IMG/VR virus record: IMGVR_UViG_3300009702_000004
Span: 1-44,142 of that record
DNA from: a virus
Length of the DNA stretch: 44,142 nt
Reading direction: 5' to 3' (one strand)
The translations under genes were made by a program, and so were the position numbers. A model generated the notes under the pieces. The model saw nothing but the letters and a program-made list of their open reading frames with translations. It was not told where the DNA came from and did no database searches. The stretch's first letter is position 1. Every line of letters starts with the position of its first letter. Shown in pieces: positions 3,015-44,142 of this stretch.

Positions 3015-3232
3015 TATCTGAGTACCGCCAGAGCTATTGTGAGAAGTAAGGCACCCAAAGCTGCGATCCCTTTTGCCCATGCCCGAGACTGCTTGAGAGA
3101 GTCGATGTCATTCTGTTGAGCCTTCGTATCTCCCTTCATCTCCTTGATGTCTTGCGCCATCAGCATCGTCCTCTCGTCAATTCGTGCTACCGTCGATGCT
3201 ACGGTGTCGTTTGGTGCTATCGGTGCTGTCAT
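3014..3232 (-). CDS. Small membrane protein with a C-terminal TM helix (holin or spanin-class candidate)
   Basis: 72 aa. Hydrophobic tail GIAALGALLLTIALAVL. ATGA overlap with the upstream 1465-aa gene. Occupies the position of T7 gp17.5/18.5. Confidence 0.5.
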   Translation of the reverse strand: MTAPIAPNDTVASTVARIDERTMLMAQDIKEMKGDTKAQQNDIDSLKQSRAWAKGIAALGALLLTIALAVLR

Positions 3233-6200: not shown

Positions 6201-7626
6201 GGGCGCTGCCCGGAGAGACCTGTTGGAAACCGAAGCCCTCATAGAATTTGACCAGCTGCTCCTTGGTCAGGGTGTTGTCACCAAACGGAGAAGCATTCAG
6301 TTCTATGTTTACGCCGTGTTGATCCGCGGCTGCCACGATCTTATTCATGGCTCGCGTCCCAGCACCCTCGCCCGGCTTCAGCGCCTGAAGAGTCCTGAGT
6401 TTTACAATGTCCTCACCTTCGAGAGAAAACTCGATCTTGGCGCCATCGACGATGGTCTCGCCGTTCTCACCCACTTTGAACTCGTCGCTAAATGCGCGAG
6501 CTGCTGGACTCGGCCTTCCTCGCTCTGCCCGAGGTGCAAAGTCTTGGACCGGCTGCTGATCCTTTACGACTTGGATTCGTCCAGTCTCAGGATCGAGCTT
6601 GCCCATAGATTCGACAACGATCTGGTCATTCTCCAGCCGTGCGCGGATTCCTCCCTTGCCTTGTGGAGTATCGAATTCAAAGAGGCGGAGCTCATCGCCG
6701 CGGAGACCCGCGTCGGCTCCCGCCATCGCTTCTGCCTTGACTTCTGTCAATACTGGCTTGGTGTCACCCGCCCCACGAGACAGCCGAGCGCCGCCGCTGG
6801 GGAGATCTATGACCTCAGGAGTCTGTGGCGCTTTGAAGCCCGCTACCTCTTCGGCAGCCGCGGCCAGATTACCGCGTGCAGCGGCCCGCCAAACCTTAGC
6901 GCCAGCAGCCAGCGTGGCTATGGTGCCCCCGAGCAACAAACCTTCGAGAGAATTCTTGAAGCGCCCTTCTGCTTCCCCGTCACCCGGCTTTGCCGCGAGA
7001 AAGTCAAACAGAGGATTCTGGAGCCATGATGGCCCATTCTGTACCAGATTAGAGAGCCGGTCGGTGACAGGATCTAAGAAGATCGCATCGGCCACAGCGC
7101 CCTGTGTGAGTCCCCGAGCTAAGGTGGAAAACTTCTTGAGCTTCAAGAGTTTGCCGACCCCGAGAAGACCAACTCCAATTTGTACGATGCCCTCAGTGAG
7201 AGAGCCGGTAACCGAAGTGGGTGCGGTGATCGCATCCTTGCCGATATGCAACGGATTCCGATCATCAGAGCTTTGAGACCACCAGTCTAGGAAGTCCTGT
7301 CCTCCGAAGAATTCTCCGGCTCCAGTGATCTTCGCCGCGCCGCCGCCGATGCTGGTGGCAACATCTCCCAGCTCGTCTACAGCGCCGATGACTCCCCGCA
7401 CGCCACCACGCCGAATTTGGGCGTTGAAGTCGCTGAAGGGATTCAAGGCATCGATAAACATCCTTCCGAGGCCGGCACGCTCTTGCGGGTCAGACCGAAG
7501 GGCCTGAGACGGTCCTGTCAGGGAAACACCCTGCGGATTGGTGGCGCGAGCGCTGTCTGCTGCGAGAAAGCTCTTCCGCTCACGGCGAGCTGCTCTCAGG
7601 CGCTGCGTTCTACTCTGATCTTGCAC
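3229..7626 (-). CDS. Internal virion (ejection/core) protein, gp16-like, with an embedded GNAT-like acetyltransferase segment
   Basis: 1465 aa, the last of three ORFs after tail tubular B as in T7 gp14-16. Residues about 312-475 carry GNAT-type motifs (LKPGEGAGTRAMNKIV ... LVKFYEGFGFQQV). Confidence 0.7.
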   Translation of the reverse strand: MQDQSRTQRLRAARRERKSFLAADSARATNPQGVSLTGPSQALRSDPQERAGLGRMFIDALNPFSDFNAQIRRGGVRGVIGAVDELGDVATSIGGGAAKITGAGEFFGGQDFLDWWSQSSDDRNPLHIGKDAITAPTSVTGSLTEGIVQIGVGLLGVGKLLKLKKFSTLARGLTQGAVADAIFLDPVTDRLSNLVQNGPSWLQNPLFDFLAAKPGDGEAEGRFKNSLEGLLLGGTIATLAAGAKVWRAAARGNLAAAAEEVAGFKAPQTPEVIDLPSGGARLSRGAGDTKPVLTEVKAEAMAGADAGLRGDELRLFEFDTPQGKGGIRARLENDQIVVESMGKLDPETGRIQVVKDQQPVQDFAPRAERGRPSPAARAFSDEFKVGENGETIVDGAKIEFSLEGEDIVKLRTLQALKPGEGAGTRAMNKIVAAADQHGVNIELNASPFGDNTLTKEQLVKFYEGFGFQQVSPGSARMIRRAGGLSGDLPIDPAFQGAVGRDKLSIIGTELSAEFPTANEIVGFRLKSGKPASIPTTRLRQEVFASRGDAANEALAMADGKIQNAIPMGGFSEASTKAAEDLATAYRTNRSGQTIRRLEQAWIKTNRTNLGANKKAIGKQIASLAHILESAGKGSRKIMTLRANDALGLFKGSGTSGLSAVEDFADIDPVALRRAAGLVLQSLGQDVARYSIRITQGASDLTYVQMARAMDQMVHVEELVTGRPAVWLDRSNRLFKGGRPRNPDVQGTHANLDAPTPGPLDGPNPNAAKETAQAVSPVPEAAPKASAAAAAGVEEGAQLKIPRSAFQRLDAGVSPGPRSVRNLSKNEIQRLGRFVALADGDPRGILTSLKATKLEAMVGSDRPGIRSTLIRWRLSGMLSGFSTQAVNTISTGIQTALLPAELMIGGVLKNEPGSLRQGAHALYALLTEQGDAWRAVGRALKVKQGALDPAFMTREIDAGRFGGMLSFMNIPMDFLTASDEFFKVLNYRARIRSRSLLSSAREGLDAATSARRMADDLDASIAADGHGLNTDALEYARNATFTDDLGPKVKRIASLIQGDDALGTAGQLFIPFLRTPHNVMKNIVMRSPLAALSVKSLQADFLAGGARAASAQGRLATAAALTGTAGLLAAAGRITGGGPQNPAVRKRWMDAGFRPYTIRMGNTLVNYNRLSSLFGPMAMVADIWQASGSIKDGETINEAMMGVTASLLNYVSDNSWIGNAGEMMNVLFDGDPHAMVDFTERVAATMAVPVAVSQFTGFDDQMREADGFVQNLMKLTPGLSDNLPARRNIFREPVFKAAGSFDRTFNPFTQVGPTKDNALALSLYRLGKNMALPDHLKYDGRLDLRDTNRFGKVNGMSPYEFWQEKTAHPSANTPSLKSALSRLIHSTAWARMPPGSEDFPGGPRYEAAAAIIQQYQDLAEVQMLGAFPDLAQADMQEKILRSVGRFGGRPATDALQESFTRRQSSP

Positions 7627-17957: not shown

Positions 17958-19622
17958 TTATTGTTGAGCGGGTGGGGCTTGTGCTGCTGCTGCGGGTGGG
18001 CCGCTCTGCTGTGGCGCTCCCGGCTGCTGATTCTGTGCTTGTGCAGCGATAGTGGGACCAACAGAGGCTTCCGCCATCCGGCGTTTGAACGCCATTTCGT
18101 CTTGAGCAGCAATCTCTTCATCAGTGCGGAACAGATCCTTGAGGACCAGACCCAGCTCTGCGCCTCTCAGCGAGATCAGAGTATCGAGTTTGATCTTCTT
18201 GGCTGCGGCCTCTTGGCCAACGAGCTCCGCTATCCCCTGAACCAGAACGTCATATTTCTGGAGTTGTGCAAATCTGCCTAGTGCAGGAAGTCCAGTCGTA
18301 ACCTCGGGGGATACAATTTCCTTAGGCAAGTCGGGAAGTCGGCCTTTCCTCTTGAGGATGGCCATATACCGACGGGCGAGCGGAGTTTGGAGCTCCACCG
18401 CCAAACGCGAAAATACCCCACCGAGAGCTTGTTCGAGCTCTTGCGCGATGAGGCGAATTTCCTCGGCTGTTACTCGCTCAGCTTTGCGGATGTTGTCCGA
18501 AGTGAGCAAGAAGATTGAAGCCAGACCGCGCTGGATATTCTCCTGCACAGACTTCGCGACCGATAGGTCTGAAGCCTTGTCTACCTTCAAGGTGCCTACA
18601 TCCTCTTCGCGGCCGTCGATCACATCGCCGTTGTCGGCTTCTGCGACCTCTTCCGCTTGCGTCAGTCCGCCCTCATTGACGAGCCAAAGGACTCGTGCTG
18701 AGGCGGCGGCGCCTGTGATGAGGCTATCCTGTAATGACTCGTTTGAATCTAGGTCGCCCTGAAACTCTTCTCCGAGTCCGCGACCATAATTCTCTCCAGC
18801 TATGAGCTGCCACGTCAGAGGTATCCAAGCCGGTGAATCGAGTGGCCTAGAGGCGCGAGTGCCCGGAAGCTCTCCGAGGCCCTCCATCTCTTGCCACGAG
18901 ATCCATCTGTTTTCTTTTCGGATAGTCCGCGTGAAGACATCCACCGAATCTTCGGCGGGCTGCTGCTGGCCGTTGGGCAGGTTGCGCGGCTCTGTGTCCG
19001 CTAAGAACCTTTGGATCTCTCGGGGTAGGGTACGGGCCGAGACCGACTGCCGGAGAATGATCTCTAACACGGAGCCCATGGCATCTCGCTGCACCACATA
19101 TTGGTTTAGGCGGAAGAAGGTTCCCACGCCATCATCGTCAATGTGCAACAGCCCATTCCCGGTGATGATCATGGAGCGCATGGCGTCCACCAGTGGGGCT
19201 CTGAGCCCCGACCGTTCCATCTCTATCCGGGTGGTCTGCTCTACGTTGGAGAGGCCTTCCTCTATCTCTCCGCGAGTGTCGTCTGGCAAGTCCTGAAGGT
19301 CAAGCGGCGATATACTGAGCTTGAAAAATGGCTGGCCGGGCGGCATGATGGCTAGCGTCAGCTTGTTGGCCAGATTGTTTACGCCGCGGGCTCCGATACT
19401 AGACTTCGGAGTCATATATTGCTCCGACGCCGTGCTGGTCCCCTCCTCGAAGGGGATCAGATATGGAATCGTTACCTCGCCCACGAGCCGTCCACGCCAG
19501 ATATACTGCGAGCGATCCGTCTGGAGCTGTGCATATCTGTCAAAGGCACTGATTCCCAGCTCACCCTGTGCGAGTGTCTCGGGGGTAGTCCCCGCGCCGG
19601 GGAAGCTCGTGCTGATGCTCAT
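17958..19622 (-). CDS. Portal (head-tail connector, gp8-like)
   Basis: 554 aa, first large gene of the structural block, upstream of scaffold and capsid. Confidence 0.85.
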   Translation of the reverse strand: MSISTSFPGAGTTPETLAQGELGISAFDRYAQLQTDRSQYIWRGRLVGEVTIPYLIPFEEGTSTASEQYMTPKSSIGARGVNNLANKLTLAIMPPGQPFFKLSISPLDLQDLPDDTRGEIEEGLSNVEQTTRIEMERSGLRAPLVDAMRSMIITGNGLLHIDDDGVGTFFRLNQYVVQRDAMGSVLEIILRQSVSARTLPREIQRFLADTEPRNLPNGQQQPAEDSVDVFTRTIRKENRWISWQEMEGLGELPGTRASRPLDSPAWIPLTWQLIAGENYGRGLGEEFQGDLDSNESLQDSLITGAAASARVLWLVNEGGLTQAEEVAEADNGDVIDGREEDVGTLKVDKASDLSVAKSVQENIQRGLASIFLLTSDNIRKAERVTAEEIRLIAQELEQALGGVFSRLAVELQTPLARRYMAILKRKGRLPDLPKEIVSPEVTTGLPALGRFAQLQKYDVLVQGIAELVGQEAAAKKIKLDTLISLRGAELGLVLKDLFRTDEEIAAQDEMAFKRRMAEASVGPTIAAQAQNQQPGAPQQSGPPAAAAQAPPAQQ

Positions 19623-29926: not shown

Positions 29927-32422
29927 CTAGCTGAAGAAGTAGCGCGAAGTCCGCACCTGTTGAACATTGAAGGTGCCCTTTGGGGGTGGCAATGGGACTT
30001 CCGCCTGTGATGAAAAACTTCGATATAGCAGATCAATCACATCGCGTCCATCATAGAGAGAGATGAACGCTTCCCGAGTCGCCTCTGCCATAGTTGAGGC
30101 GTCACAGGCATGAGTACTGTAGCTGTCGTGAACCATTCCGAAGGCGTCGATACCTCCGCGAGAAGCAAGCACTAGAGTCATCATCATTGCCGCCGCATCC
30201 AATGAATGGATGACATTCGGAGCGATGCTGTTTTTATGCTTGATGCGGAGCGCCTTTTTGGTCTTGCGCCATGTTGAGAGCGTGACAATGGAGCCGCATA
30301 GAATTGTCTGTACACGGTGTCTCTTCATGTTCCAATATTCTTGTCGAGCAGGAAAGCCCGTTACCGGGACTGTCCATTCGACGAAGCCCCGTTCGTCACA
30401 CACAGCGCCCGCGCATTCCGCGAGCCACTCCATGCCGCCGAACGCGGCGACTACTACATCCTCTAGCGCTGTCCAGATAAGACCAGCCAAATATCGGCAT
30501 AGAGGGCCGATATAGGATGATCCGTTGTCCAGTTCAAAGGTGGACTGGTTGATCTCCTGCCAGTTGTCTTCCCCCACGAGCGATTCCTCGATCTGTCGGG
30601 CCATGCCGAAAGTCTTGGACCCGTAGGCAAAGGTCATAGTGGGCCGTTTGAACAAAGACCTGCTCAGGAGTCCACTGTGAAGCCACCACTTAGCTGTATC
30701 CATTCCAGTAGCAGCGTCCCGAGCGACAAGCGTGCGGACTGCAGAGTGGATGGCGTCATATACATCGCGAGGTAGGCTTTCTTCTGTGAGGTTGACTTCC
30801 CGCGCCCCTCTAGGATCGCGCAGCAATGCCGCGAAGTGTTGTAGCCCGTTGCATGTACCATCTTGCGCGATGGGGAGACTACTGCGAAAGCGCTCCCCGT
30901 TCCCCACCGCGTCAGCCTCCATGTAGGCATTCCATTCGATTGCGAACGCAAGAAACTGAAACGGTTTATCGGCTTCAGACCACCATGTGATTCCAGCAGG
31001 ATCTTTCGCCACTGCTCGAATTGCCTCTGTGTTAGCCCTGATCCATTGAGCCCTTTGCTCGAAGGATTCTTTGCTGAATTTGTGTCCATCAAACTCTCCT
31101 AGTGTATTAGCCCCGTGTATAGCAAGCCAAGTAGCACCAGTAGTATTGAGGGGCTTAGAAGCAGAAAAACAAAGAAGCCCACGCTGCAGGTCTGAACCTT
31201 GCGGTTGAAGACCTGAACAGATCGGATAGGCTCTTCCTCGGAAGTCGAGATTATGCGGAAACCAGATTCGATCATATTGAGCAAATTGCTCAGCGAGCTC
31301 GATGGCCGTAAACCATTCGATGAGTCTGCTCGCTCGGAGATTGTTCCGCTCTTTGATTTCCGACGCGGCCCGCTTCCATTCTCTGAGTTGTTTCTGTTGC
31401 TCTTCTGTCTGACGATGGCGCTGTATTCCTTTCTTCATCCACGGATGCTTGGGCGGCATGGGCTCTGGCTCAGCGTCAGGAAGACCGCCAAGAGAGCTTC
31501 CTCTCTCGCGGAGATCCAATACCACGTCGAGCACGCGCTGATTGACCCGCCAAGCGGTGGACTGCATTCTGTTGAGCCCCTCATAGACGAAAGGCATGTC
31601 GACCTGTCGGACCCGAGCGTTGCTGGTCTTGCGAACAAGCGGATATTTGTCACGCAACGCATAGCGATACCCGCCGTTCGTCTCCTGTGTCCACGGCAGC
31701 GGCTCTTCGACCATCGGCAGGGCCTGCGGCCGATGCCACTGCATTATGTCATTGGTGTCTTCGAGGAGCTGCTGTGTCTCTTCAGTGAGAGCGAAGGTCT
31801 TGACCTCAGACCATTTCTGTCCCTTCTTCCTCTTCTTGTTTGTGAGACGACCGATGCCGGTTGTGTCAAGGCACACATTGATCAACTTGAGGCCGAGGAG
31901 CATAGCTTCCCGGTCAGTCAGATTCGCGTCGTCCTCGACCCCTGCGTATCGAGCTGCTTGGTTCAGAGAATGTGCTCTATGCTTGTAGTTGGACGTGTTG
32001 AATTGCCGCATGCGGTATTCAAACAATCCCCGAGCCTCTGTCCGCAGCTTCCGATAGCGTAGCTCGTCATTCAGCAGTCTCGCGATGGTCGGAGCGAGTT
32101 TGGAGATGTTGCTCTCGATGTGAGGATGCCCCAACAGTGTCCTGATGGTGATGTAGGCTGCCACATCCGTGCCGACCAACTGAAGCCACCGGATCAAAGT
32201 GCCATAGCCCCGCCGATCCTTCTTAACGAGTATCTCGTCAAAGGCCTTTTTGGTCGGTGACAATACCTTCTGCAGCAGCTTGCGGGCGGCGCCCTCAGCT
32301 GTCGCATCTCCTTCTTGAGATAACTCTTCGAGTCTCTTCCTGAAGCGGAGAGCCCCGTTGGCCAATGCTGCATCTTCCAGCTCTGTTTGACGCTGGTGCA
32401 TCGCTAAGGAATCATCGTTCAA
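29927..32422 (-). CDS. Single-subunit DNA-directed RNA polymerase (T7 gp1-like)
   Basis: 831 aa with FRGRAYP, DGTCNGLQHFAALLRD and HDSYSTH motifs. TTG start follows AAGGAG by 9 nt. Confidence 0.96.
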   Translation of the reverse strand: MNDDSLAMHQRQTELEDAALANGALRFRKRLEELSQEGDATAEGAARKLLQKVLSPTKKAFDEILVKKDRRGYGTLIRWLQLVGTDVAAYITIRTLLGHPHIESNISKLAPTIARLLNDELRYRKLRTEARGLFEYRMRQFNTSNYKHRAHSLNQAARYAGVEDDANLTDREAMLLGLKLINVCLDTTGIGRLTNKKRKKGQKWSEVKTFALTEETQQLLEDTNDIMQWHRPQALPMVEEPLPWTQETNGGYRYALRDKYPLVRKTSNARVRQVDMPFVYEGLNRMQSTAWRVNQRVLDVVLDLRERGSSLGGLPDAEPEPMPPKHPWMKKGIQRHRQTEEQQKQLREWKRAASEIKERNNLRASRLIEWFTAIELAEQFAQYDRIWFPHNLDFRGRAYPICSGLQPQGSDLQRGLLCFSASKPLNTTGATWLAIHGANTLGEFDGHKFSKESFEQRAQWIRANTEAIRAVAKDPAGITWWSEADKPFQFLAFAIEWNAYMEADAVGNGERFRSSLPIAQDGTCNGLQHFAALLRDPRGAREVNLTEESLPRDVYDAIHSAVRTLVARDAATGMDTAKWWLHSGLLSRSLFKRPTMTFAYGSKTFGMARQIEESLVGEDNWQEINQSTFELDNGSSYIGPLCRYLAGLIWTALEDVVVAAFGGMEWLAECAGAVCDERGFVEWTVPVTGFPARQEYWNMKRHRVQTILCGSIVTLSTWRKTKKALRIKHKNSIAPNVIHSLDAAAMMMTLVLASRGGIDAFGMVHDSYSTHACDASTMAEATREAFISLYDGRDVIDLLYRSFSSQAEVPLPPPKGTFNVQQVRTSRYFFS

Positions 32423-32444: not shown

Positions 32445-32760
32445 GGAGCTGTGTGTCCTCGGGTTACCCCTCAGGTTGCTACCCTATACCCTCCTTGGTT
32501 ACTATCCCCTCATTGGGTTACCCTCAGGTAGCTTCCCTATCTCTCCTACGTACCTCCTTGCGTTACCTCATTGGGTTACTCTCCTTAGGTAAGGAACAAC
32601 AATGAATAACTCTCCTAGGGGTATATACCCAATAGACCTCTTTGCGTACCTCCTTGCGTTACCTCATTGGGGTGCAGGTCATAGAGGATAGACCTCAGGT
32701 GCTCATGGGGAAGACTCCTAAGGTATACCTATATACAGTCTTTTTCTTCTTTTTTTTCTC
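32445..32760 (-). repeat. Array of imperfect direct repeats with Shine-Dalgarno-like cores in the RNAP leader
   Basis: Exact 27-mer cgtacctccttgcgttacctcattggg at 32549-32575 and 32645-32671. Four copies of cctc(att)gggtta. At least eight AGGAG/AAGGAGG cores on the minus strand without start codons. Confidence 0.85.
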
Positions 32761-32828: not shown

Positions 32829-33155
32829 CTAGAAGCGCACTTGTACGCTGCGTCGGGCGGTCGCTTCGTGGTCGGGCGGCAGGGCATCCATCAGGGCTGC
32901 GATATACCTGACCAGCCGTCCCTTGGCTTTGATCATCCTGCCGTAGGCGTCCCCTGTATAGGACACCGCCCCGTCTCTTCCGTCGCTCACTTCTCTGAGC
33001 GCCACCTCAAAGTCCGCGGAGGTCTCCATCAGCTCATCAACGAGGGTCATTGCTTTCGGTGTCACCCGGATCACTGGAAAAAATTTCCCCTTATCCCCCC
33101 CTCGATTGCGCTTAGGAGGTTCTGGCAGGAATGGTCCATCTGATAGGATTGACAA
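32829..33155 (-). CDS. Hypothetical early protein, paralogue of 37885..38106
   Basis: TLVDELMETSADFEVALREV...GRLVRYIAAL aligns with TLIDELIRTSANLKMRLREA...TRVMDYIEAL. TTG start. Confidence 0.6.
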   Translation of the reverse strand: MSILSDGPFLPEPPKRNRGGDKGKFFPVIRVTPKAMTLVDELMETSADFEVALREVSDGRDGAVSYTGDAYGRMIKAKGRLVRYIAALMDALPPDHEATARRSVQVRF

Positions 33156-33183: not shown

Positions 33184-33263
33184 TGGAGGCGCAGGGAATC
33201 GAACCCTGGTCCGGGCAGCTCGCCACTGTTGGGTCTTTGCTCCCGTCAAACCCATTCGCCCCC
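33184..33263 (-). ncRNA. Minimal tmRNA-like RNA (tRNA-like domain only)
   Basis: Acceptor helix GGGGGCG/CGCCUCC with G3:U70. T-arm CAGGG-UUCGAUU-CCCUG. The 5' string GGGGGCGAAUGGGUUUGACGGGA resembles the tmRNA 5' end. No D-stem or anticodon arm. It fills a 119-nt intergenic gap. Confidence 0.65.
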
Positions 33264-33274
33264 TTCTTTTTTTC

Positions 33275-33433
33275 CTATCCTTCTCTTCTTTCAAGCTCTG
33301 TTATGATCGCTATGGATTCTTCTCTTTCGATTCCTCCTCGGTTTCTCTGCGCCAGCTTGATGAGACGTTCTTGGAGCCACTCGTTCGGCCAGTTCTCGAA
33401 GCCTGTCGGTTGCTCATTATCATCAGGATGCAT
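33275..33433 (-). CDS. Possible small ORF, 52 aa
   Basis: The ATG overlaps the end of the upstream ORF. Below the track threshold. Confidence 0.4.
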   Translation of the reverse strand: MHPDDNEQPTGFENWPNEWLQERLIKLAQRNRGGIEREESIAIITELERREG

Positions 33434-37884: not shown

Positions 37885-38106
37885 TTAGCTCTCCTCTGTT
37901 AGGGCTTCGATGTAGTCCATCACCCGCGTCTTCGCTTGGGCCGCTTGGATGTAGGCGGTTGCTGCGCGTTCGAACCTGCCTTCTTCTACGCGGTCATCCT
38001 TTGCTTCTCTGAGCCTCATCTTCAAGTTGGCTGACGTTCTTATCAGCTCATCAATGAGGGTATTTCCATCTACTGGTGGGCACGAGATGTAGGTGCTTTT
38101 CATCAT
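37885..38106 (-). CDS. Hypothetical early protein, paralogue of 32829..33155
   Basis: See 32829..33155. Confidence 0.55.
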   Translation of the reverse strand: MMKSTYISCPPVDGNTLIDELIRTSANLKMRLREAKDDRVEEGRFERAATAYIQAAQAKTRVMDYIEALTEES

Positions 38107-39748: not shown

Positions 39749-39866
39749 AGGCGCTCGGGTCTGACCCAAAAAATTCGAGTGGAGGCGCGCTCGGGTCTGA
39801 TGACCCAAAAAATTCGAGTGGTGGAATACCATCGTCGGAATGCCTCCTGTGTGACCCAAAAAATTC
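39749..39866. repeat. Three direct repeats containing GACCCAAAAAATTC
   Basis: Copies start at 39763, 39802 and 39853. The first two extend to about 34-39 nt (aggcgc(gc)tcgggtctga(tg)cccaaaaaattcgagtgg). Confidence 0.9.
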
Positions 39867-39978
39867 CGGCGAGGCGCTGTACGCCCTCCTAAGGCCCGAC
39901 CCCAAATAAAAGGGCCTGGGAGTCGTACATCATACCGTTTGCGGCCCCTGCTCGGGCTGGAGTGGGCCCGTGTCCGTT

Positions 39979-42032: not shown

Positions 42033-42083
42033 TTCTAATTGTTCTCCTTCGTGGTGGATTTGCGTTGATTTTGAATACTAGAG

Positions 42084-42156
42084 CTGGGACACAGGGGGTC
42101 GAACCCCGAACCTTCCGGGTAACAGCCGGACGCTCTGCCAGTTGAGCTACATCCCA
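42084..42156 (-). tRNA. tRNA-Asn (anticodon GTT)
   Basis: I folded it by hand. Acceptor UGGGAUG/UGUCCCA, D-arm GCUC-AACUGGCA-GAGC, anticodon arm UCCGG-CUGUUAC-CCGGA, T-arm CGGGG-UUCGACC-CCCUG. CCA is not encoded. Confidence 0.9.
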
Positions 42157-42926: not shown

Positions 42927-42938
42927 CGGTGTCTCCTT

Positions 42939-43667
42939 TTAGGGATCTCGGGTTTCTACTCGGACTTGAAACTCGCGGACCTGTGCTGTGTTGGTGGCAT
43001 GGGCTGATGTGAATTCCAATTTGATATATCGTGCATTGCTTTTCTTTGAAGCGAGAACATGTTCGACCCAAGTACCGCCAAGTCCAGTCCAAACAATGGT
43101 GATTCCGCTTTCCAATAGATTCGCGGCGTCATCAATCTTTCTCAGATTCTGCGCTGCACGAACTGTGATATTGGCAAGTTGTTCTGTGACAGGTTCCGCA
43201 GTATTGTATCTGAAACGGATCTTACTGATCTTCTTGGGATAAGATCGAATTCGATAGACGATGTGATGTGTCTCGTTTACAGCATGGCGCCATGAGGTTC
43301 CATTGTCACCATCAATACTATTGGTAGCAACATTGGTACCAGTCTCTCCACAGAAGGATTCTATAGCTTCTGGTGTGAACCACGCTCCGTCACGGACCGA
43401 AAAGTTTTCGGTGCGATTGTCATAGGCATAATAATCCACACGATCCTTCAACATATCAGATTCTTCTTGCAGGGCTGTGTCGAAGGAAGCCAGATCAGGA
43501 AAATCATAGCACATCGCTACATCGGCTCTCACAGAATCAGACAGAGACTGAAGTTCTACAAGCTTCAGAATGCGGGCATCGTCGTCTACCTTAACGAATG
43601 TCTGCGGGTCGATGTAAAGATCTAACTCAGTTCCCGCATTCTGGGGACGATAAAAACGAATGGGCAT
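42939..43667 (-). CDS. Discoidin (F5/8 type C)-like carbohydrate-binding protein
   Basis: SIDGDNGTSWRH ... ARYIKLEF ... VREFQV pattern in the C-terminal half. Adjacent to the fibre gene. Confidence 0.5.
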   Translation of the reverse strand: MPIRFYRPQNAGTELDLYIDPQTFVKVDDDARILKLVELQSLSDSVRADVAMCYDFPDLASFDTALQEESDMLKDRVDYYAYDNRTENFSVRDGAWFTPEAIESFCGETGTNVATNSIDGDNGTSWRHAVNETHHIVYRIRSYPKKISKIRFRYNTAEPVTEQLANITVRAAQNLRKIDDAANLLESGITIVWTGLGGTWVEHVLASKKSNARYIKLEFTSAHATNTAQVREFQVRVETRDP

Positions 43668-43682
43668 ATTATTGACGGCTCC

Positions 43683-44142
43683 TTATGTCCACACTGGAAT
43701 CCAGTGTGCAACGCCGTTGATGTCGATCTCCACCCACTGTGCCTGTGCGGCAACAGTTGGGCCGGAGCCTCCGATTGTTCCCAGCGTGGCGGCTGCGCCC
43801 GCGCCGAGGGCTATTCCCCTATTGATGTCCAAACGGCCATTCACAACTACATCACCGCCAAAGATACTTCCTGCTGTTCCTGTGTGGTTGATAAAGGTAC
43901 CGTTGTTCATTGCAGAGTTGATTCCGCGGATAGTGGTCGGTCCTGAGATATTCGCTATATCAATTCCATTGAAGGTGCCAATAGTTCCGCCAGCCGTCAG
44001 AGTCACCGCTTTTACAGCGAAGATACTAGCAGTCGTAATAGAAGCAGACCCCACTGTGGCGTCTACTGACAAGGAGCCATAGAATAACTCTACGCTAGTC
44101 TGCGTGATTGAACCGCCATTTATATTCGGACCCCACTTTGGC
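43683..44142 (-). CDS. Tail-fibre-like protein, 3' part (same gene as 1..926; nt 44020-44142 duplicate nt 1-123)
   Basis: In frame with the open minus frame of 1..926. The start at 44072 in the track is an internal TTG. Confidence 0.75.
   Translation of the reverse strand, partial: PKWGPNINGGSITQTSVELFYGSLSVDATVGSASITTASIFAVKAVTLTAGGTIGTFNGIDIANISGPTTIRGINSAMNNGTFINHTGTAGSIFGGDVVVNGRLDINRGIALGAGAAATLGTIGGSGPTVAAQAQWVEIDINGVAHWIPVWT
44020..44142. repeat. Second copy of the 123-nt terminal overlap
   Basis: Identical to nt 1-123. Confidence 0.97.

Follow-up and report, generated by a model that had tools for sequence, protein, structure and literature searches.

The window, which is the whole stretch of 44,142 nucleotides analysed here (IMG/VR virus record IMGVR_UViG_3300009702_000004), comprises an entire phage genome (about 44.0 kb), the first and last 123 nt of which (positions 1-123 and 44020-44142) are identical and are either direct terminal repeats or a circular assembly overlap. 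All genes are on the minus strand, and the gene set includes a T7-type RNA polymerase (RNAP), a T7-type SSB, an endolysin, a primase-helicase, a DNA polymerase, a Gp10A-like capsid protein, a tail tube protein, and a T7-type terminase. No GenBank phage has an RNAP more than 40% identical to that of the window, and the lineage is therefore deep-branching. No integrase was found among the window ORFs scanned, and no early ORF is longer than 242 aa. The element described below lies between small ORFs in the early region of this lytic T7-like genome (Table 1), and the part of the early region upstream of the RNAP gene is, by analogy with T7, presumably transcribed by the host polymerase.

An earlier note, which was made from the sequence alone, had placed the element in a 119-nt gap between a 52-codon ORF and a 108-aa ORF. 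Both ORFs were confirmed (52 aa at 33275..33433 and 108 aa at 32829..33155) and the gap stands as far as these coordinates are concerned. A 73-aa paralogue located upstream of the SSB gene (37885..38106) aligns only to the C-terminal 73 residues of the 108-aa ORF, the true start of which, judging from the sequence, is probably the ATG at 33050. With this start, taken from the paralogue, the non-coding gap would be about 224 nt rather than 119 nt, and about 133 nt would be left untranslated 3' of the element. A scan for sigma-70 promoters and terminators around the element found nothing beyond chance on the coding strand. Searching the GenBank phages by blastn returned no match for the surrounding 2.5 kb and T-arm matches only for the element itself.

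In the 400-nt non-coding stretch that immediately precedes the RNAP gene, a perfect 27-nt repeat, CCCAATGAGGTAACGCAAGGAGGTACG, occurs twice on the minus strand (32549-32575 and 32645-32671; none expected by chance), and a third, partial copy, ACCCAATGAGG, lies near position 32520; these repeats may be a promoter/operator array governing the RNAP gene. A 24-nt unit, TGACCCAAAAAATTCGAGTGGAGG, occurs three times in tandem in the early region (39762-39875) with spacings of 39 and 51 nt. Between positions 32000 and 38000 the G+C content is 0.47-0.51 as compared to about 0.55, and the AT skew of the plus strand goes down to -0.38; because of this strongly negative skew the coding strand of the segment is A-rich relative to the rest of the genome.

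Structure and identity of the element

On the minus strand the element reads, in this order, GGGGGCG / AAUGGGUUUGAC / GGGAGC / 19 nt / GCUGCCC / GGAC / CAGGG-UUCGAUU-CCCUG / CGCCUCC / A. The reading of 33184-33263 given in the earlier note matches the sequence exactly, and the 7-bp acceptor helix with G3:U70 and the perfect T-arm that it described are both seen there. The features of a tmRNA tRNA-like domain (TLD) are present, namely G3:U70, A73, the T-arm, a D-loop analogue without a D-stem, and the GAC...GGAC junction; in the consensus structure of the tmRNA model the linker GAC makes non-standard pairs with the 5' GAC. The D-stem, the anticodon, and a 5-bp/7-nt anticodon arm are all absent, and in the per-sequence fold the interior is predicted to form a 7-bp helix that has a bulge and carries a small cap. 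The mRNA-like domain (resume codon, tag reading frame, and stop codon) is absent as well, with 19 nt between the two strands of helix P2, and so are the pseudoknots PK1-PK4, for which no sequence is left; the 19-nt interior stands in place of PK1-PK4 and the tag ORF. Since A73 is followed by UCA, the CCA is not encoded, and post-transcriptional CCA addition is therefore needed. The unencoded CCA and the bulged G in P2 are minority features of this copy, as is the U instead of C before GAC (found in seven of the 125 distinct sequences among the matches listed) and an MFE fold in favour of an alternative helix.

Table 1. Coordinates of the mini-tmRNA, its parts, and the RNAP gene in the window, and of mini-tmRNAs in cultured phages.
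Feature	Sequence	Positions	Strand	Basis or remark
Complete mini-tmRNA (TLD only), G1 to discriminator A	Window	33184..33263	-	80 nt; Rfam tmRNA 61.3 bits, model R1 65.3 bits
Acceptor helix 5' strand GGGGGCG, holds G3 of G3:U70	Window	33257..33263	-	Sequence
D-loop analogue AAUGGGUUUGAC, without D-stem	Window	33245..33256	-	Rfam alignment; tmRNA consensus GGaUUCGAC
Helix P2 5' strand CGGGAGC	Window	33239..33245	-	Rfam alignment, fold, covariation
19-nt interior AAAGACCCAACAGUGGCGA	Window	33220..33238	-	Per-sequence fold: A-rich internal loop and small capping hairpin CCA/UGG
Helix P2 3' strand GCU(G)CCCG, single bulged G	Window	33212..33219	-	Sequence, fold, covariation
GAC linker of conserved GGAC motif, 5' of T-arm	Window	33209..33211	-	Rfam consensus structure
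T-arm CAGGG-UUCGAUU-CCCUG, perfect 5-bp stem	Window	33192..33208	-	Sequence, Rfam; T-stem pairs 1-2 covary
Acceptor helix 3' strand CGCCUCC, contains U70	Window	33185..33191	-	Sequence
Discriminator A73	Window	33184..33184	-	Sequence; next bases UCA
T7-type single-subunit RNA polymerase (PF00940)	Window	29927..32422	-	0.76 kb downstream of the element, same strand
Mini-tmRNA, mycobacteriophage DS6A	JN698994	28478-28557		R1 66.1 bits; no RNA annotation
Mini-tmRNA, Stenotrophomonas phage Jojan60	ON045087	37725-37804		R1 66.5 bits; no RNA annotation
Mini-tmRNA, Streptomyces phage Shaeky	MT701595	~42932-43010		R1 69.5 bits; no RNA annotation
Mini-tmRNA, Streptomyces phage LuckySocke	OR725497	~17977-18054		R1 65.6 bits; no RNA annotation
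Mini-tmRNA, phage GiJojo	PP725410	17035-17102		blastn only; 'hypothetical protein' CDS overlies; no RNA annotation

The Rfam model for tmRNA (RF00023) matched the element above its gathering score (61.3 bits versus 47, E-value 1.1e-21) over model positions 1-374, with 316 internal positions covering the pseudoknots and the tag frame deleted and 26 nt in their place. RF00023 was the best model within the tRNA clan (CL00001), in which overlapping matches are reduced to the best one; RF02544 (mt-tmRNA) was not reported at the gathering threshold. ARAGORN called neither a tRNA nor a tmRNA at 33184-33263. Its sole call in the window was an ordinary tRNA-Asn (GUU) gene at 42083-42156 on the minus strand, near the start of the early region, which was also recovered by Rfam. 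The earlier note had considered that an ordinary tRNA might fit the locus. This possibility, tRNA-Ala included, was rejected in view of the silence of ARAGORN, the better match of the tmRNA than of the tRNA model within the clan, and the lack of a cloverleaf interior. tRNA-Ala is alike in its 7-bp acceptor helix with G3:U70, discriminator A, and canonical T-arm, and presumably in the enzymes that process and charge it, whereas the D-stem, anticodon arm, and anticodon of tRNA-Ala are all three missing from the element.

Two further candidates were rejected. The acceptor piece of a two-piece (permuted) tmRNA (RF01849-51, RF04321) does not fit, the 5' acceptor strand preceding the 3' strand in one 80-nt unit, and an attP site or ssrA 3' fragment does not fit either, both TLD halves being present and no integrase being found in the ORFs scanned. 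The MFE fold of the element favours an alternative helix of the D-loop analogue with the interior loop, which was discarded as a feature of the family (mean complementary run of 4.71 versus 4.47 with shuffled D-loops). The folding stability compared to shuffles is unremarkable (z = -0.62), and the support for the element therefore comes from homology and covariation and not from folding energy.

Because of the Rfam alignment, a dedicated covariance model, the covariation (both described below), and the equivalence to the element of mycobacteriophage DS6A, we conclude that the window element is very probably a TLD-only tmRNA. The same evidence supports the proposal of the earlier note, namely a TLD that is closed at helix 2 and lacks both the pseudoknots and the tag ORF. 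With bacterial one-piece tmRNA (SsrA, RF00023) the element shares the whole TLD and the start of helix 2, the AlaRS pair, and the SmpB-site motifs, whereas the PK1-PK4, resume codon, tag ORF, and stop of the bacterial molecule (316 of the 374 model positions) are lacking. With the mRNA-like part missing, the messenger half of trans-translation is out of reach for the window element.

CDS-less tmRNAs are known from mitochondria and some plastids (PMC11915505). Those of jakobid mitochondria (RF02544) and the ~65-bp plastid genes of Mallomonadaceae resemble the element in that they have little beyond the TLD and apparently no tag frame (PMC11915505). The organellar forms differ in being usually circularly permuted (in mitochondria) and in co-evolving with a dedicated imported SmpB, whereas the window has a viral gene of standard order that depends on the SmpB of the host. 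The full-length or two-piece tmRNAs of phages (for example Bxz1-type mycobacteriophages, Cellulophaga phage Calle_1, and OM43 phage Melnitz) are likewise phage ssrA-type genes that are sometimes near tRNAs. They keep the tag ORF (Calle_1's 360 nt) and are detected by ARAGORN, whereas the mini form is 74-82 nt long, has no ORF, and escapes ARAGORN.

The earlier note knew of full-length phage tmRNAs only and of no domain-only phage gene. Mycobacteriophage DS6A, listed as 'TLD only' by Hudson, Lau and Williams in 2014 (PMC4131195), carries one, and the novelty of the window element had therefore been overrated. The DS6A tmRNA (tmID 11587 / Phage__Mycobacterium.9) is alike in being phage-encoded and ~80 nt long, in having G3:U70 and a D-loop analogue that ends in GAC followed by the T-arm, and in its P2, which is closed by an A-rich loop and a small hairpin. 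The two sequences are unalignable outside the conserved core (DS6A has GCAC and the window GGAC), and the DS6A element is below the Rfam gathering score, whereas that of the window is above it. The phages differ as well, DS6A being a temperate Mycobacterium siphovirus with an integrase and the window phage a lytic-type T7-like podovirus. The tmRNA database holds nine 'Standard, no CDS' entries among 97,179, and its 79 phage sequences are from RefSeq viruses only (PMC11915505); the supplementary tables of that paper contain nothing on phage no-CDS forms. Our literature search found no survey of TLD-only phage genes and no report of such a gene in T7-like phages. The kind is thus already known from DS6A, and the window copy is, within the literature searched, the first found in a T7-like phage.

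Distribution and covariation of mini-TLDs in phages

Scanning IMG/VR with a sequence pattern yielded at least 24 distinct complete mini-TLDs, alongside other tmRNA 3' ends, and a covariance model (R1) was built from nine of them. Members score 58-90 bits with R1 and non-members at most 43 (window 65.3, DS6A 66.1). Position 70 was left free as C or T in a second viral scan, after which the tally, earlier loci included, stood at at least 119 viral contigs with at least 89 distinct sequences of 74-82 nt. Among the matches listed, U70 is present in all 90 distinct sequences (window included) even though C or T was allowed, and CCA is encoded by only 29 of the 90. Of the D-loop analogue the pattern search forced only the GAC, and in the preceding part of the motif GGUUUC|GAC a U at -5 is found in 123 and a C at -4 in 105 of the 125 distinct sequences among the matches listed. 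In total, the family comprises at least 187 loci and at least 125 distinct mini-TLD sequences of 74-82 nt.

The 5' ends were out of register in a MAFFT alignment, and base pairs were counted in model-based alignments instead. In the model alignment of 30 diverse sequences standard pairs fill 96.7% of the pair cells; shuffling lowers this share to 74%, and sliding the register to 57% or less. Changes on both sides are seen at 12 of the 19 pairs, and none of 500 shuffles reaches the observed values. Helix P2 changes on both sides at six of its seven pairs, and the acceptor pairs are paired in 100% of the sequences, with positions 5-7 covarying. The structure is conserved across many phages. Integration remnants normally retain just the 3' end of ssrA. 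One could suspect a relic, either the decaying remnant of a once full-length tmRNA gene of phage or host or an attP or ssrA fragment left by integration, because integration often targets tmRNA genes, prophages contain fragments of ssrA (PMC9004378), and MW202733, the nearest GenBank relative of the window phage, has an integrase. Against such an origin stand the two TLD halves in standard order, the compensatory changes across the 125 distinct sequences among the matches listed, the tight lengths, and a window that is a complete lytic T7-like unit in which no integrase was found. With the conservation across the family excluding the relic that the earlier note had allowed for, we consider this explanation highly improbable.

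The interiors of the family members are 7-13-bp bulged hairpins, mostly capped by tetraloops (among the matches listed). In one of them (L044) the Rfam model aligns the cap to tmRNA helix P2b, and mini-TLDs therefore look like tmRNAs closed off at helix 2. Among the matches listed, 120 of the 133 pattern matches at viral-contig loci plus the window are stand-alone. The same pattern applied to bacterial genomes gave one clear stand-alone case among the 120 matches listed, the rest being inner parts of normal tmRNAs, which ties the stand-alone form strongly to viruses. The single mini-TLD of the bacterial scan sits on a short contig (L333) and is uninformative. One metagenome contig (L409) has two identical mini-tmRNA copies 2.1 kb apart (971-1050 and 3062-3141), which are a duplication or an assembly repeat.

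Relatives of the window phage were found via the protein database, a single-sequence RNAP search of viral contigs having given nothing, and RNAP homologues 59-66% identical led to contigs of the same gene order. A mini-TLD lies ~0.9 kb upstream of the RNAP gene in L219 (63.6 bits) and directly after the SSB gene in L217/L218 (57.2 bits). In both the acceptor stem is identical to that of the window, and P2 with its cap is wholly different in sequence with the pairing retained; the T-stem A-U pair of the window is U-A in L219 and L217, and the T-loops differ too. The copies of these two relatives are divergent, with compensated helices. A metagenome scan fixed on the acceptor and T-stem of the window recovered at least 60 contigs with at least 31 distinct sequences, and in the alignment of this acceptor class six of the seven pairs of P2, which was left unconstrained, change on both sides, and 94% of the cells are paired. 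L221, L222, and L223, of which only part of the early region is covered, gave no mini-TLD, and neither did a clade of 42% identity (L224, L225) or MW202733. The gene is patchy within its clade and therefore accessory and dispensable. Its position in the early region also varies, being beside SSB in some phages and near RNAP in others.

These comparisons bear on the suggestion, also made in the earlier note, that the element might be punctuation only, i.e., a tRNA-shaped RNase P/RNase Z signal that parts early cistrons and whose excised RNA is idle. RNase P requires just the acceptor and the T-arm. The element fits tightly between ORFs in a polycistronic early region, and L217 has an ordinary tRNA-Cys(GCA) at 7357-7431, upstream of its RNAP gene (product 66% identical), at the site corresponding to that of the window's mini-tmRNA, its own mini-tmRNA being located 5.6 kb upstream of the RNAP gene beside SSB. 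Punctuation would leave the conserved tmRNA-specific and AlaRS identity features unexplained: it accounts neither for G3:U70 in all 90 distinct sequences among the matches listed, the tmRNA-type D-loop, and the GAC/GGAC motifs, nor for the narrow range of 74-82 nt and the maintained P2 and cap, and the position of the element differs among relatives. This explanation is accordingly regarded as quite improbable.

Mini-TLDs are treated as tRNA-type genes, as is apparent from their tRNA neighbours and from gaps in annotated arrays. Among the matches listed, a tRNA lies no more than 300 nt from the mini-TLD in 17 of the 119 viral contigs, always on the same strand, and in 11 of them the distance is at most 20 nt. 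Three of the four cultured phages besides DS6A carry copies in or beside tRNA clusters: that of Jojan60 is located downstream of four tRNAs and partly beneath a 'hypothetical protein' CDS, and those of Shaeky and LuckySocke fill gaps of annotated tRNA arrays. A 30-bit R1 match in Gordonia phage GMA2 (KR063281, ~60.4 kb; L348 1451-1529) lies just upstream of an annotated tRNA array and probably stems from the 3' end of a full-length tmRNA that lacks annotation. ARAGORN misses family members and miscalled two, taking one for a permuted tmRNA of 652 nt whose tag is implausible (L064 9391-10042) and the other for tRNA-Pyl(CUA) (L105 6659-6748). No translation- or RNA-repair-related protein family recurs within 3 kb of mini-TLDs; because of this lack of a recurrent protein neighbour, the mini-TLD presumably works via host factors.

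Possible action on host trans-translation

The sequence determinants for alanylation and for binding of SmpB and EF-Tu are present in the window element. U70 and GGUUUC|GAC are conserved in the family without having been forced by the searches, and they are needed for charging and SmpB binding and not for mere RNase P cleavage. Isolated TLD fragments reportedly bind SmpB and enter the ribosomal A site with EF-Tu, as is said of the work of Bessho in 2007 and Neubauer in 2012. Two papers that cite Mao et al. 2009 (PMC4131195 and PMC11915505) say of DS6A that its TLD-only form inhibits the endogenous tmRNA of E. coli; in the wording of the former it is 'perhaps acting by titrating SmpB'. The two papers differ on the molecule tested, which was either DS6A's own or 'a similar molecule'.

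We lean, at somewhat better than even odds, towards a functional CDS-less mini-tmRNA of the DS6A type that competes with host tmRNA as an early decoy. This reading is favoured because the universal G3:U70 and A73 and the SmpB-side motifs are needless for a processing signal and because of the published result for DS6A. The alanine-chargeable SmpB/EF-Tu decoy put forward in the earlier note is the same idea as that given for DS6A in the relevant passages of PMC4131195 and PMC11915505. For the inhibitory-decoy mechanism specifically the chances seem evenly balanced. Host RNA polymerase would transcribe the element, which precedes the phage RNAP gene, as part of the early polycistronic RNA. The tRNA-processing enzymes would excise it, with RNase P generating the 5' end and the 3' end being trimmed and given its CCA. 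AlaRS would then charge the mini-TLD with alanine through G3:U70 and A73, and the alanylated molecule would be bound by host SmpB and EF-Tu. It would compete with host tmRNA for SmpB and stalled ribosomes, and trans-translation would not be completed because there is no resume codon, tag ORF, or stop codon. Acting as a dominant-negative decoy, it would stop or redirect both ssrA tagging and the rescue of ribosomes at an early stage of infection.

Some phages, namely lambda-immP22 hybrids and Mu, need host tmRNA. Besides this need, the minority features of the window copy and its patchy occurrence within the clade speak against a decoy, as do the full-length tmRNAs encoded by other phages (PMC9004378). 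The last point would also suit a tag-less rescue helper, in which the alanylated mini-TLD enters stalled ribosomes with host SmpB and accepts the nascent chain, the complex being resolved through drop-off with Pth, through ArfA/ArfB, or in further rounds, with more rescue and no proteolysis tag as the result; a role of this kind was suggested for the CDS-less tmRNAs of mitochondria. The conserved charging and SmpB-type features would serve a helper as well as a decoy, many copies belong to the tRNA arrays of large phages, and such arrays are commonly taken as translation support, and jakobid mitochondria keep CDS-less tmRNAs with SmpB that are thought to aid incomplete mRNAs (PMC11915505). The sole experiment cited for a TLD-only molecule reports inhibition of tmRNA, however, no Pth-, ArfB-, or release-factor-like gene recurs beside mini-TLDs, and there is no stop codon for releasing the chain. 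A rescue helper is therefore seen as possible, if unlikely.

A decoy directed not at trans-translation but at host defence could bind the SmpB-like OB-fold domains of CoCoNuT types II and III-A or soak up tmRNA/tRNA nucleases. The SmpB-like domains of these predicted defence systems were proposed to bind tmRNA, and SsrA was reported as the commonest substrate of RtcB (PMC11090510). An RtcB-like ligase is encoded by DS6A, and the virus-enriched, accessory, and patchy distribution of mini-TLDs is typical of counter-defence genes. This case is purely circumstantial, no defence or repair gene is found near the window element and none recurs near the others, and the universal G3:U70 implies charging, which a passive decoy would not need. 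We consider a defence decoy improbable, and the competitor of host tmRNA remains the preferred reading.

In the literature searched, CDS-less phage tmRNA is a single curiosity (DS6A), and the family described here is far larger and under-annotated. The same architecture is shared by an early-region element of a T7-like phage and by copies in two relatives of that phage; at least four further cultured phages and well over 100 metagenomic phage contigs have it as well. ARAGORN-based annotation pipelines overlook mini-tmRNAs, and some records overlay them with 'hypothetical protein' CDSs. That mini-TLDs are widespread, largely unannotated phage effector RNAs going beyond SmpB titration is a doubtful but conceivable extension; they may, for example, be decoys for CoCoNuT-type SmpB-like proteins or for tmRNA/tRNA nucleases, or may provide tag-less or alanine-only rescue. 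If this is true, the T7-like early copy would be a host-takeover factor of the first minutes of infection. Since cultured phage-host pairs carry a mini-TLD, the question of why phages manipulate ribosome rescue is directly testable by deletion and complementation. The compensatory changes in the helices and the universal alanine pair point to a common, selected route by which phages may interfere with or exploit host trans-translation.
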